From positions 1 to 60,977 of the IMG/VR virus record IMGVR_UViG_3300021519_000001: DNA of 60,977 bases. One strand, written 5' to 3'. This stretch comes from a virus. Its lineage: Duplodnaviria > Caudoviricetes. The first letter of the stretch is position 1. The number at the start of each line of letters is the position of its first letter. This document shows positions 1,987 to 50,000 of this stretch, one piece after another. The translations under genes and the position numbers were made by a program. The notes beneath the pieces were generated by a model, which saw only the letters and a list, made by a program, of their open reading frames with translations, was not told the DNA's origin and did no database searches.

Positions 1987-2208
1987 ATGAAATTTGAAAT
2001 GGAATTTGGCGTTTTTGGTAACAGCAAATTGGTAATTGAGACTCACGATTTTGACGTCATCGATATTTTTCAAAAGTTTGTGGAGTTTCAAGAACACTAC
2101 GGTTGGGCTGTTGAGTACGAAGCCACGGCTGTGCTTGATGACGAGTTTGAAGACGAAGATGAAGACGAAGTTGCGGCTGCTGAAGCCGAAGCTGCTAAAA
2201 CAGAGTGA
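1987..2208 (+). CDS. Small acidic hypothetical protein
   Basis: 73-aa ORF, AGGGG RBS, D/E-rich C-terminus. Confidence 0.7.
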   Translation: MKFEMEFGVFGNSKLVIETHDFDVIDIFQKFVEFQEHYGWAVEYEATAVLDDEFEDEDEDEVAAAEAEAAKTE

Positions 2209-2210
2209 TA

Positions 2211-2588
2211 TTAGGGGGCCACGGCCCCCTTCTTTTTGGCTTTTTTAACAAGCCGTTCGTCGTGATGATGTATGCGGTGGCAATTAGCGCAAAGCACAAT
2301 ACACTTCTTGACCTCTTCCATAGCCCGTTTGAACGCACGGTTTTTTATCAGCTTGTTGACTGAATCTTCTTTGGTGCTGCTGTCTATGTGGTGGAAATCA
2401 AATGTAGCTGGGTGGTTTTGCCCGCATTTTATGCAAGCTAATGTAGCTTTAAAGCTACGCCATTGATCTTTATATGCTTTGGCGGAAGCCTTGCTTGCTG
2501 CAATTACAATGGCTTTATTGTTAGCATAGTACGTACTTGCGTACGTCTTTTGTTTAGTTTGCTTAACAATTTTGTCTTTATACGGCAT
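2211..2588 (-). CDS. HNH endonuclease
   Basis: CxxC...FDFHH...CIVLCANCHRIHH HNH/Zn signature. Confidence 0.85.
   Translation of the reverse strand: MPYKDKIVKQTKQKTYASTYYANNKAIVIAASKASAKAYKDQWRSFKATLACIKCGQNHPATFDFHHIDSSTKEDSVNKLIKNRAFKRAMEEVKKCIVLCANCHRIHHHDERLVKKAKKKGAVAP
2213..2237. terminator. Hairpin terminator at convergent gene ends
   Basis: AGGGGGCC-AC-GGCCCCCT followed by TCTTTTT. Confidence 0.6.
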
Positions 2589-3018
2589 GTTTGATCCGGT
2601 ACTTCCAATATAGCGCCGTTTTTAAACCCCAAGGTTTAGATGGCTCAAACATTTTGAAACCCATAGCTATCAAACTGTTTGCAGATGCGGGGTTTTCATT
2701 AGTGTCCGTAATCACCCAATTCATGCCTAACGTTTTGGCTTTGCGAACCCGCGCTTTAATAAACCTTTTCTGAAGCCCGCGTCCACGATGAGCGCGTACA
2801 ACACCTGCCCGACAAAGATACATAGTGTCAGACCAACGACTAGAGGAAACAACACCAGCGAACCCAGCAGCCTCACCATTCTGTGTGTAAGCGACATACC
2901 AGTATCCTTGAGCGATTGGGTAAATTTTATCGTGGGGAAGACATGCTTTTTGAAGCAACGCCAACAACTGCACCACCTCTGGCTGGCGAGTATCGACAGG
3001 GACAATGCGGTATTTCAT
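2578..3018 (-). CDS. GNAT family N-acetyltransferase
   Basis: Acetyl-CoA motif A (V..AHRGRGLQ) and N.AS..L...GF motif B; probable start ATG 3018. Confidence 0.85.
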   Translation of the reverse strand: MKYRIVPVDTRQPEVVQLLALLQKACLPHDKIYPIAQGYWYVAYTQNGEAAGFAGVVSSSRWSDTMYLCRAGVVRAHRGRGLQKRFIKARVRKAKTLGMNWVITDTNENPASANSLIAMGFKMFEPSKPWGLKTALYWKYRIKHAV

Positions 3019-3059
3019 GCCCCCATAATGCCCGGGGATTGTGACAAGAAAAATAATTG

Positions 3060-3088
3060 TTGCGCACTTAAAAATACCGTGATATAAA
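3060..3088 (+). promoter_or_regulatory. Sigma70-like promoter
   Basis: TTGCGC-17 nt-TATAAA with TG extended -10. Confidence 0.6.
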
Positions 3089-3094
3089 CATAGC

Positions 3095-3176
3095 AATCCG
3101 GGCTTTCCGGTGCATCAAACAGTCCCGGCTGACGACATACAGATTGATGCACTTAACTTGTATGTAAGGAAAAATC
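3095..3176 (+). ncRNA. Candidate structured 5' leader (double pseudoknot)
   Basis: Pairings 3110-3118/3144-3152 (9 bp), 3098-3102/3124-3128, 3120-3122/3129-3131, 3135-3141/3159-3165 next to the SD. Confidence 0.6.
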
Positions 3177-3719
3177 ATGGCACGCACTACGTTCAGTGGC
3201 CCAGTACGATCAATGGGCGGTTTGTACCAACAAGGCCCCGGGGCCGTTCTCACACTCACTTCTAGCACTACGCTTGACCCTGTTACTCACGGCGGACGGC
3301 TTTTGGTTGTTGGCGGCTCTTTGGCCGCTGCTTTGACTTTAACGCTGCCCACTATCAACACCACCGCTGATGCTTCTACTGCTGGCCCGGGCCGCGATTA
3401 CAACACCCAAAACAATTTAGGTGTGCTGTATACCATTTGGATTTCCACCACGCTCAGCACTAGTTCTTTAAAAATTGCTACTGATGGTACTGACCGTTAT
3501 ATCGGTTCCTTGCTGTCGGTGGACACAGATTCGTCTGGTGCAATGGTAGGTTTTACTGCTAACGGCTCCAGCAATGACTTTATTAATTTGAATGGAACGA
3601 CCACTGGTGGCGTTGCAGGCACTTGGATTGAGATCCGCGCAATTGCCGCATTGAAGTACTGCGTCACTGGCGTAATCCTTGGTACTGGCACCGTGGCTAC
3701 GCCATTTGCAGACGCTTAA
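3177..3719 (+). CDS. Putative virion structural protein (head fibre/decoration-like)
   Basis: 180 aa, N-terminal MARTTFSGPVRS, T/G-rich; AAGGA RBS. Confidence 0.6.
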   Translation: MARTTFSGPVRSMGGLYQQGPGAVLTLTSSTTLDPVTHGGRLLVVGGSLAAALTLTLPTINTTADASTAGPGRDYNTQNNLGVLYTIWISTTLSTSSLKIATDGTDRYIGSLLSVDTDSSGAMVGFTANGSSNDFINLNGTTTGGVAGTWIEIRAIAALKYCVTGVILGTGTVATPFADA

Positions 3720-3764
3720 TTAACTCAAGGGGGCCATGGGCCCCCAACTTAAAGGAGATTAATT

Positions 3765-4061
3765 ATGGGTTTTCAATTTGACGTAAAAGCAAAGAACATG
3801 ACCGCTACCGGTGCGTCCGGTATTGGTGTTCCTCGGGCGCGTGTTAAATCAATTTATATCGTTAATGGTGCAACAACAGGATCCGTTTCTTTCAAAGATG
3901 GCGGCGCAAGTGGCACTGAATTGATAAAAATTGACACGCCTGCCAGCACTACGGGTACAGGTTCAATGATGATATTAATTCCGGGTGATGGGGTTGTCTT
4001 TTTGGCGGACCCTTATTTGACCCTTACGACCGCCACATCGGTTACATTTTTCTACGGATAA
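3765..4061 (+). CDS. Putative virion structural protein
   Basis: 98 aa, beta-rich, AAGGAG RBS. Confidence 0.6.
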   Translation: MGFQFDVKAKNMTATGASGIGVPRARVKSIYIVNGATTGSVSFKDGGASGTELIKIDTPASTTGTGSMMILIPGDGVVFLADPYLTLTTATSVTFFYG

Positions 4062-4071
4062 GGAGTCCAAA

Positions 4072-4254
4072 ATGGGACGAGCAACAAAAATGGCAGACGA
4101 TCAGTACCAAGGCGAAATTCAGCCCGGTGCTCAGAAACAAAACATGGCTAAAGGCGGCCCTAAGCAAACATCACGTAAGACAGTGGCTCCTTCTGGCTCC
4201 ACTACACCACGTGGTGTAGGCTTGGCTCGCAACAAGCCCTGCAAGATGTACTGA
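4072..4254 (+). CDS. Small basic protein with MAKGG motif
   Basis: 60 aa, AAGGAG RBS, RGxG-like C-terminus. Confidence 0.7.
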   Translation: MGRATKMADDQYQGEIQPGAQKQNMAKGGPKQTSRKTVAPSGSTTPRGVGLARNKPCKMY

Positions 4255-4255
4255 A

Positions 4256-4510
4256 ATGGCTAAGACTCCTGCTTGGCAGCGGAAAGAGGGCAAAAGTGCC
4301 AGTGGCGGTCTAAACGCCAAGGGCCGTGCTTCTTACAACAAAGCCAATCCGGGTAAACCCGGATTAAAGGCTCCGCAGCCAGAGGGGGGTCCTCGCAAAG
4401 ATAGCTTCTGTGCCCGTATGGAAGGCATGCGAAAGAAGAATACAAGCGAGAAGACCGCCAAGGATCCAGATAGCAGGATTAATAAAAGCTTACGGAAGTG
4501 GAAGTGCTAA
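4256..4510 (+). CDS. Small basic conserved phage protein (DUF6321-like)
   Basis: PAWQRKEGK...GGLN.KGR.SY...SFCARM...LRKWKC. Confidence 0.7.
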   Translation: MAKTPAWQRKEGKSASGGLNAKGRASYNKANPGKPGLKAPQPEGGPRKDSFCARMEGMRKKNTSEKTAKDPDSRINKSLRKWKC

Positions 4511-49365: not shown

Positions 49366-49827
49366 ATGAACCGCAAGACAAATCCATTGATCAACGCGAT
49401 CAATAATGCAACAGAACAGTCCCGCAAAGAGGGACACAATTTAATCGCTAGAGCTAAAATCCTAGATGAAGCACGTATGAAAATCAGAGTGAATTACTCT
49501 GGGGTTTTCAAGGATCTAGATTTGAGCGTGCATAACTTGTTTGTTCGTACAAGTTATTACAAGCCCACAATTACTGTGAACATGAATGCTTTGGAATCAT
49601 TCAAAGACACCCAGTTACTGGGCCTGCTTGAATTCTTTTCAAGCAAGACCGAAAAGGTTACAACCCGTGATTGGGCTAACTATTTAAACAGGGATTACAG
49701 TTTTGAACTGGACGATGTGCTTGTCAACATTTCTGCATACGTTCGGACCGATAGCCCAACCTGCAGAAAAGTACAGACAGGAATTAAGGTTGAAGAGATC
49801 CCCCAGTACGAACTGGTCTGTGACTAG
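49366..49827 (+). CDS. Early hypothetical protein
   Basis: ATG 49366 after AGAAAGAAGAGAG; DS.TC.KV..G...Y...C C-terminus. Confidence 0.75.
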   Translation: MNRKTNPLINAINNATEQSRKEGHNLIARAKILDEARMKIRVNYSGVFKDLDLSVHNLFVRTSYYKPTITVNMNALESFKDTQLLGLLEFFSSKTEKVTTRDWANYLNRDYSFELDDVLVNISAYVRTDSPTCRKVQTGIKVEEIPQYELVCD

Positions 49828-50000
49828 ACCGGCCGGACCGGTCCGGCCGGTCTGGTTTGTTCACCAGTAAGCGCTGGTCTAGCTTGTATGTACATACAAG
49901 CTAGAAATCACAAACAAGAAGGCAGCCGAACTGGCTGCCTTTTTTGTCAGCCGTCACTCTACCCTACTGGGTAGAGTATCACAGGGCCCGAGGGCCCTGT
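49826..50000. repeat. Cluster of palindromes/hairpins
   Basis: Perfect 28-bp palindromes at 49826-49853 and 49878-49905; hairpins at 49863-49878, 49956-49977, 49981-50000. Confidence 0.9.
49919..49945 (+). terminator. Rho-independent terminator ending early region
   Basis: AAGGCAGCC-GAACT-GGCTGCCTTTTTT. Confidence 0.85.

Follow-up and report, generated by a model that had tools for sequence, protein, structure and literature searches.

The DNA analyzed here, which we refer to as the window, is the whole of a viral record, 60,977 bp long and bearing direct terminal repeats (IMG/VR record IMGVR_UViG_3300021519_000001; Caudoviricetes). Within its first 4 kb, a gene for the major capsid protein of the Mu-like gpT/HK97 type (positions 961 to 1872, + strand) is followed by a terminator (1894 to 1917) and, farther along, by a gene for a late virion protein of 180 amino acids with a putative fiber- or spike-like beta fold (3177 to 3719, +; MARTTFSGPV...). 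The capsid gene was recognized by PF25209 (50.6 bits), by PF10124, Mu-like_gpT (32.7 bits against a cutoff of 20.1), and as PHROG 371, major head protein, and it defines the genomic slot considered below. This report concerns the roughly 80 nucleotides (nt) directly upstream of the virion gene (3096 to 3176, +), a leader that is conserved among relatives, is found once per genome, and contains four helices that vary in step from one lineage to the next.

An initial annotation, made from the letters of the window alone, had described a promoter, four complementary pairings, and a ribosome-binding site in this leader, and direct reading of positions 2700 to 3500 finds every one of them where it had been placed. 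On the + strand, a promoter-like TTGCGC (3060 to 3065) and TATAAA (3083 to 3088) are separated by a 17-nt spacer, and transcription is predicted to start approximately 1 to 3 nt before the first helix. The 5′ strand of that helix (A, CCGGG, 3098 to 3102) forms pseudoknot 1 with CCCGG (A′, 3124 to 3128). A linker, GCUUUCC(G) (3103 to 3109), includes the second CCGG (3107 to 3110) of an alternative 5′ hairpin as well as a UUUCC complementary to the GGAAA of the ribosome-binding site. The main helix of 9 bp is formed by B, GTGCATCAA (3110 to 3118), and B′, TTGATGCAC (3144 to 3152), and within it lie an invariant bulged A (3119) and hairpin C (3120 to 3131), which consists of CAG (3120 to 3122), the loop UCCCGG that carries A′, and CUG (3129 to 3131) and has an invariant C-G closing pair. 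Hairpin C is followed by an invariant AC (3132 to 3133), by ACAUACA (3135 to 3141), which is the 5′ strand of pseudoknot 2 (D), and by an invariant GA (3142 to 3143) immediately 5′ of B′. Beyond B′, the loop UUAACU (3153 to 3158) runs back along helix B; the corresponding loop, which connects B′ to D′, measures 3 to 7 nt in 132 of 136 leaders. The partner of D, UGUAUGU (D′, 3159 to 3165), ends at -12 from the AUG and is continuous with the Shine-Dalgarno sequence AAGGA (3166 to 3170; UAAGGA with U3165), and the start codon follows at 3177. The strand order of the element is thus A-B-C-A′-C′-D-B′-D′.

Judged from this one sequence, the pairings do not exceed chance expectation. For positions 3095 to 3179, the nested minimum free energy is -16.5 kcal/mol, compared to a shuffle mean of -16.19 (z score, -0.11; 86 of 200 shuffles at least as stable), a longer stretch around the leader gives a z score of -0.19, and 78 inverted-repeat pairs (9-nt seed, within 40 nt) occur across the window. 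A promoter scan of the window did not list the TTGCGC/TATAAA pair because its rule demands a T at the last -10 position.

Comparison with relatives gives a different picture. We extracted 160 nt upstream of the 80 best loci, all from lake relatives, and aligned the 60 distinct leaders with MAFFT, that is, blind to structure. The leader is conserved across these loci, and all four helices covary: 95.0% of 1,428 cells form a pair, versus 19 to 46% when the partners are slid. Compensatory changes on both sides occur in 19 of the 24 pairs (3/5 in A, 9/9 in B, 2/3 in C, and 5/7 in D), and none of 500 shuffles reached the observed values. From the same alignment, RNAalifold finds B and C unaided, with 10 of the 11 predicted pairs compensatory. 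On a model-fitted alignment of 94 distinct sequences, helix B is 99.1% paired and all nine of its pairs are compensatory. The pair C3120-G3131 is invariant in both alignments (60/60 and 94/94), and the inner pairs of hairpin C covary (AU 43, UA 14, and GC 3 among the 60 leaders). Many pairs are U-G, for example UG 28 and UA 19 at one pair; as the opposite strand would give A-C mismatches at these places, the + strand is fixed and RNA is favored. Covariation and G-U pairs together therefore bear out the compact, double-pseudoknotted RNA on the + strand that the initial annotation had proposed.

Two further scans, which yielded 365 and 248 relatives, added marine loci (L083 to L232), resulting in 222 leaders with sufficient upstream sequence, 156 of them distinct. 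A strict skeleton, defined as helix B, one A, a hairpin closed by C-G, AC, 7 to 9 nt, GA, and helix B′, was matched by 149 of these 156 leaders, which come from lake and marine viral contigs and from the cultured Pelagibacter phages HTVC023P and HTVC027P. In this wider set A and D were assessed by parsing with cross-lineage controls rather than by alignment columns; column counting on the model-fitted alignment was dropped because the length of the 5′ linker varies and puts A out of register. Perfect Watson-Crick pairing of 5 to 7 bp between A and A′ is present in 140 of the 149 leaders, versus 104 of 745 trials in which loops and flanks were swapped between lineages, and it takes at least 15 sequence types (CTAGG/CCTAG, CTGGG/CCCAG, and ACTATAC/GTATAGT, for example). 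D pairs with D′ over at least 5 bp in 142 of the 149, versus 65 of 745 mismatched-lineage trials, in types that include ACATGCA/TGCATGT, TAGTAG/CTACTA, ATGCAC/GTGCAT, CCTAG/CTAGG, GTATAG/CTATAC, and TTACGAA/TTCGTAA.

The leaders of the two cultured phages keep all four helices in entirely different sequences. In HTVC023P, A is CCTAG/CTAGG, B is TTTTGTAG/CTACAAAA, and D is GTATAG/CTATAC, followed by AGGAG; in HTVC027P, A is ACTGTA/TACAGT, B is TTTACATAG/CTATGTAGA, and D is CCTAG/CTAGG. Across 115 distinct leaders of this full type, with a mean column identity of 43%, seven bases are invariant, and all of them lie at the junction of the helices: A3119, C3120, G3131, A3132, C3133, G3142, and A3143. 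Comparison puts the pairings far beyond chance, and we have high confidence that the RNA structure is real.

The element is bound to a single position. A covariance model built on helices B and C only (R1) matches the window once, at 3096 to 3177, with 86.2 bits. It gives one match per locus in 100 of 100 loci, always ending at the start of the open reading frame (ORF), and matches one place in each of five of five other near-complete genomes, 11 of 13 loci from a separate genome collection, and the leaders of HTVC023P (70.7 bits) and HTVC027P (59.3 bits). A simple skeleton scan of the window yielded no other convincing copy; its three extra matches have helices of 5 to 6 bp, and shuffles averaged 2.5 such matches. 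One locus of the genome collection (L245), whose homologue of the 180-amino-acid gene is 29% identical, is matched by neither R1 nor the Rfam model RF03012 described below and may carry a further variant or no element.

A perfect 28-nt palindrome elsewhere in the window (TCTAGCTTGTATGT/ACATACAAGCTAGA, 49878 to 49905) has nine bases (CTTGTATGT/ACATACAAG) in common with helix D′/D of the leader, and it lies in a regulatory-looking gap together with a 17-nt palindrome (49823 to 49856) and a terminator (49916 to 49944). It is absent from five of five related genomes, and we treat the resemblance as coincidence.

When other genes intervene after the capsid gene, the leader stays with the gene downstream of it. 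In the window, three ORFs separate the end of the capsid gene (1872) from the leader (3096), a distance of 1.2 kb: a small acidic ORF after the capsid terminator and, on the opposite strand, genes for an HNH endonuclease (2211 to 2588) and a GNAT acetyltransferase (2578 to 3018). Intervening genes are likewise found at L017, L019, and L066, and in HTVC027P two small ORFs (gp60 and gp61) lie between the capsid gene and the leader. The HNH and GNAT genes are common to the window and these three loci, most relatives having only a terminator there, and the pair looks like a mobile insertion into the head module.

Between the capsid gene and the leader, most loci have an intrinsic terminator followed by a -10-like box. 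The -10-like hexamer precedes the first helix base by 4 to 10 nt in 135 of 149 leaders (127 of 140 full-type leaders and 8 of 9 of a shorter, mini type), with TATATT in 46, TATAAA in 40, and TATAAT in 22; from its position, the element is predicted to start at the 5′ end of its transcript. In most relatives this box comes within a few bases after the strong terminator, the -35 position is in the terminator T tract, and there is no obvious -35 sequence. At the other end, 68 of 135 leaders have D′ stopping at -12 and 30 have it stopping at -13; in 124 of the 135, the stretch that best fits the Shine-Dalgarno consensus starts anywhere from 3 nt inside D′ to immediately next to it. The claim that the leader lies just 3′ of a promoter-like -10 box and abuts the Shine-Dalgarno sequence thus extends to the relatives. 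A terminator scan of the window placed none between the element and the ORF.

The protein encoded downstream of the leader has 381 relatives in viral contigs, and its cultured relatives are those of HTVC023P (43% identity) and HTVC027P (40%). An AlphaFold2 model of it has a predicted local distance difference test (pLDDT) value of 79.7. Its best match in the PDB is the capsid spike of Pseudomonas phage Pa223 (9ny6_C; E value, 5e-5), a weak match at a template-modeling (TM) score of 0.41, and predicted viral structures that match it are labeled Mtd N-terminal domain, gp9/gp10, or tail fiber. With low certainty, these models suggest a spike- or fiber-like virion protein. The first 12 to 20 residues (MA.TTFSGPV.S; 3177 to 3236 in the window) are nearly invariant even where the proteins are otherwise 30 to 45% identical or alike only over the first 56 residues; model confidence is low in this arm (pLDDT, 53 to 54), which is likely an anchoring arm. 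More virion genes follow the ORF, among them one for an SU10-type adaptor. No nucleotide match to positions 2000 to 4500 was found in a phage DNA collection. Relatives in genome collections come from metagenome-assembled and single-amplified genomes labeled with many phyla, and for this reason the freshwater clade cannot be given a host. In HTVC027P, the homologue (gp62) is classed as Late (PMC12753301) and is strongly expressed, with an average of ∼28,600 transcripts per million at the last time point versus ∼74,600 for the capsid gene (Table S3, PMC12753301).

The initial annotation had not recognized the leader as a member of a named family. A search of the leader against Rfam indeed returned no family match at E values up to 10, RF03012 included, yet kin exists: skeleton, junction bases, and genomic slot are common to the leader and to Mu-gpT-DE (RF03012). 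The best RF03012 score anywhere in the window genome, 9.9 bits, lies away from the leader and below the 49-bit gathering threshold. Searched at permissive thresholds, the window and three sets of 13 loci each gave no Rfam match to the full-type element, and the only match was RF03012, on the mini type. These shorter leaders occur at more distant loci, where eight are recognized as RF03012 at 49.3 to 72.1 bits and two fall just under the threshold; one more RF03012 match was obtained in the genome collection. Four intermediates (L219, L220, L223, and L225) combine pseudoknot A with a mini-type 3′ strand and are detected by R1 only, at 30 to 35 bits. R1 has no match in the leaders of L198, L213 to L215, L221, L222, L224, and L228 to L230, and RF03012 has none in those of L084, L100, L104, L165, L181, L182, L210, L219, L226, and L227. 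At L213 and L222, both RF03012 loci, the upstream capsid protein has the same C terminus as that of the window. The RF03012 consensus reads CCUG, A, CAGcc[loop]ggCUG, ACAcUAGCCAcGA, CAGG, and AGAU..AUG.

From these observations we propose, at a probability of roughly 55%, that the leader is a cis-acting element that sets translation initiation of the late virion gene and, probably, mRNA stability as well, and that it is an enlarged relative of Mu-gpT-DE. Positions 3096 to 3176 would make up the entire 5′ leader of the message for the gene after the capsid module and would fold into two side-by-side helical stacks. B (9 bp) and D (7 bp) form an H-type pseudoknot; hairpin C (3 bp), inside B, pairs through its loop with what would be the first transcribed bases (helix A, 5 bp), and C and A would form a second stack that, by its likely geometry, is about as long as B, such that a linker of 5 to 13 nt could reach the base of B. 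The three helices would meet at the junction of seven invariant bases (the bulged A, the C-G closing pair, AC, and GA), and because the loop of C pairs with the 5′ end at this junction, the 5′ end of the transcript would be tucked against it. D′ runs straight into the Shine-Dalgarno sequence, approximately 12 nt before the AUG. The 3′ partner strand stands just before the Shine-Dalgarno sequence in the window type, overlaps it by 2 to 3 nt in the HTVC027P type, and in Mu-gpT-DE proper belongs to an outer helix that contains the AGG of the Shine-Dalgarno sequence; in every variant it would fall within the region covered by the 30S subunit, which points to control of translation initiation. The element would then act on the ribosome-binding site, with something stabilizing or melting the fold to tune output. 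For a virion gene that is expressed late and strongly, a metabolite is an unlikely ligand, and the likeliest effector would be the free, unassembled virion protein. Less likely is a two-state arrangement in which the knotted fold alternates with a nested one that has GGAAA masked by the linker UUUCC.

Several observations weigh against this proposal. In the window type, the Shine-Dalgarno core and the AUG lie outside every conserved helix, and simple sequestration is therefore inapplicable. The RF03012 model and R1 do not detect each other's core members. The alternative 5′ hairpin, which the initial annotation had set in competition with the first pseudoknot, is partly real in that the second CCGG is present and the hairpin is 92.1% paired in the clade of the window; however, it shows almost no covariation (only two compensatory cells and a covariation score of 0.045, compared to 0.060 in shuffles) and is missing from the clade of L026 and from the marine clades, and as a conserved switch it is accordingly a weak candidate. 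A point in favor of a possible switch in this clade is the nested ensemble of the window leader, in which the linker UUUCC (3104 to 3108) pairs with GGAAA (3168 to 3172) and the probability that G3168 to A3170 are unpaired is only 0.29 to 0.38, so that the knotted fold could be the "on" state in this clade. Complementarity of at least 4 bp between linker and ribosome-binding site is present in 91 of 135 leaders, versus ∼52 expected from shuffled linkers, but it is clade specific and elsewhere AT rich and nonspecific, which speaks against the linker as a conserved anti-Shine-Dalgarno sequence. The interpretation of the leader as a switch is thus unproven. Finally, one relative's metatranscriptome contig carries terminator and -10 sequence upstream of the element; either read-through transcripts or library DNA exist, and the element need not always be 5′ terminal.

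That contig comes from a comparison of the window with four freshwater metatranscriptomes. The contigs there belong to relatives only, are interrupted at points where strains diverge, and carry no information on transcript starts, ends, or levels. Eighteen RNA runs contain 5 to 9% of the sequence words. Some of the relatives' contigs start inside the element, three of them at positions corresponding to 3117 to 3121 (all in one run, near the invariant A-C junction) and others at 3153 to 3162.

Feedback by unassembled virion protein is one of the two readings that we rank highest; the other is a constitutive fold that protects the message and presents it to the ribosome without sensing anything, which we consider somewhat unlikely as an account of the element. 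The knot would bury the 5′ end against 5′-end-dependent decay and hold the Shine-Dalgarno sequence open at the end of a helix, where its duplex with 16S rRNA could stack on D, and the outcome would be steady, high expression. This is consistent with the first helix being predicted within a few bases of the transcript start, with a helix that ends at a fixed distance from an AUG that, like the Shine-Dalgarno sequence, is outside the conserved helices of the window type, with the lack of a conserved alternative structure, and with the strong late expression of the HTVC027P homologue. However, seven invariant junction bases, in leaders of 43% mean column identity, exceed the needs of a protective hairpin, and the inclusion of part of the Shine-Dalgarno sequence in a helix in Mu-gpT-DE proper and in the HTVC027P type looks repressive.

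A bolder version, which we hold to be unlikely, is that the leader represents a new translation-initiation module: its junction would dock free spike or capsid protein or a ribosomal component, D would stack on the duplex of Shine-Dalgarno sequence and 16S rRNA, and the 5′ triphosphate end would be buried. If this were true, one 80-nt knot would both shield the mRNA and couple the output of a virion protein to the state of assembly, and Mu-gpT-DE would be its stripped-down form.

A riboswitch for a small molecule or ion appears quite improbable. Its pocket would be the invariant three-way junction, and the ligand would fix pseudoknot D beside the Shine-Dalgarno sequence, as might be expected of a compact pseudoknotted fold with invariant unpaired junction bases whose 3′ pseudoknot strand touches the ribosome-binding site. 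But the controlled gene encodes a spike- or fiber-like virion protein without a link to metabolites, the element occurs in one copy per genome and in a single gene context, and no Rfam riboswitch family matches the leader. Still more improbable is self-cleavage by a ribozyme or trimming of the leader at a processing site. Small double pseudoknots with few invariant junction bases are typical of self-cleaving ribozymes, many of which occur in phages, and the three RNA-library contigs that begin at 3117 to 3121 could be taken as a very weak hint of cleavage; however, contig ends cannot show RNA ends, the strand order is unlike that of hepatitis delta virus (HDV)-like ribozymes, and no Rfam ribozyme matches in the window, the sole ribozyme row among the loci being a Twister-P5 at an E value of 0.87 and 22 bits, outside the leader in L226. 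Least probable of all is that the element belongs to the capsid transcript as a 3′ or "downstream" feature or is a small RNA of its own that acts in trans: RF03012 is typed in Rfam as "Gene; sRNA" and named a downstream element, and an RNA-library contig extends from the terminator region across the start of the element, but 1.2 kb and three ORFs, two of them on the opposite strand, separate the element from the capsid gene, whereas its distance to the ribosome-binding site that follows is 0 nt, terminator and -10 box stand between capsid gene and element at most loci, and no terminator separates the element from the ORF.

Among known systems, HDV-like ribozymes are likewise small double pseudoknots with few conserved bases that are common in phage and metagenome DNA. 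Their strands run P1-P2-P3-P3′-P1′-P4-P4′-P2′, compared to A-B-C-A′-C′-D-B′-D′ here, and, with no Rfam match either, the topology is not HDV-like, as the initial annotation had held. Flavivirus exonuclease-resistant RNAs resemble the element in that the 5′ end is paired into a junction-centered fold that is locked by a second, downstream pseudoknot. The partners are swapped, however: in the window it is the 5′ end that pairs with the hairpin loop and the junction strand that pairs downstream, the setting is bacterial, and resistance is hypothetical here. The preQ1-II and SAM-II riboswitches are H-type pseudoknots with the 3′ pseudoknot strand at the ribosome-binding site, and with these and SAM-V the element shares that arrangement and its compactness; it differs in having the embedded hairpin in loop 1 rather than loop 3, an additional pseudoknot at the 5′ end, a virion gene under its control, and no Rfam match.

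Pseudoknotted operators that are bound by proteins include the Escherichia coli alpha-operon leader (S4; a nested double pseudoknot), the rpsO leader (S15), and the gene 32 leader of phage T4. In these, as in the window, a pseudoknotted 5′ leader lies at or near the ribosome-binding site, there in the service of feedback on a protein made in fixed amounts, and the alpha-operon leader is, like the element, a double pseudoknot. There is no similarity in sequence or model to any of the three, the binding protein is hypothetical for the window element, and the start codon is outside the conserved fold of the window type.

The closest comparison is with Mu-gpT-DE itself. Both elements have an outer helix (P1 in Mu-gpT-DE), a bulged A, an inner hairpin closed by C-G, a 3′ strand of 12 to 13 nt that begins with AC and ends with GA, and then P1′; both occupy the slot after a Mu-gpT-like capsid gene and directly before a gene of the MANTTFSGPV type, and both have a -10-like box just upstream. 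They differ in size (80 nt in the window versus 53 nt) and in the outer helix (9 bp versus 4). The window element has a pseudoknot between hairpin loop and 5′ end, whereas the Rfam consensus structure line has none, and its 3′ strand forms a 7-bp pseudoknot upstream of the Shine-Dalgarno sequence. In RF03012 the Shine-Dalgarno sequence includes the 3′ strand of P1 (CAGG), and the AUG is inside the 53-nt model; in the window 13 nt lie between the end of B′ (3152) and the Shine-Dalgarno sequence, and D′ occupies that place.

In Mu-gpT-DE members (L213 to L215, L221, L222, L224, L228 to L230, L198, and L246), an internal (C)UAGCCA is complementary to AUGGCU(A) at the start codon; the two may pair, but only the invariant GCCA/UGGC part is consistent, and covariation does not support it. 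For the mini and intermediate types we rejected a pairing between the internal strand and AUGGC: the invariant GCCA/UGGC core is all that pairs, and among 14 leaders the one variable position is in agreement in 8 and in conflict in 6.

Mu-gpT-DE comes from a 2017 survey of RNA motifs (Weinberg et al., PMC5737381), the main text of which contains no discussion of it. Its Rfam and ZWD versions differ, according to a passage in a 2020 paper (PMC7657543), and the ZWD version may already hold more structure than that of Rfam. A literature search on Mu-gpT-DE, pelagiphage pseudoknots, and capsid-linked RNA motifs did not find the larger form described.

Shared architecture and position, the only grounds for it, suggest common descent, and we read the window element as an expanded, double-pseudoknotted variant of the Mu-gpT-DE kind rather than as a member of RF03012. 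An orphan Rfam motif would in this way gain a much larger and better-defined family, one that is spread widely among abundant aquatic phages. In the samples the new form is the more common one (100/100, 12/23, and 11/13 loci, compared to 10 of 13 mini-type candidates and 1 of 13 genome-collection loci for RF03012). Its two covariation-supported pseudoknots and seven invariant junction bases are targets for experiment, and function is testable in HTVC023P and HTVC027P, which are cultured on Pelagibacter HTCC1062; an infection transcriptome of HTVC027P (MN698241) on this host has been published (PMC12753301). Seen beside its larger relative, Mu-gpT-DE reads as a 5′ leader tied to a ribosome-binding site and not a "downstream element" of the capsid gene.

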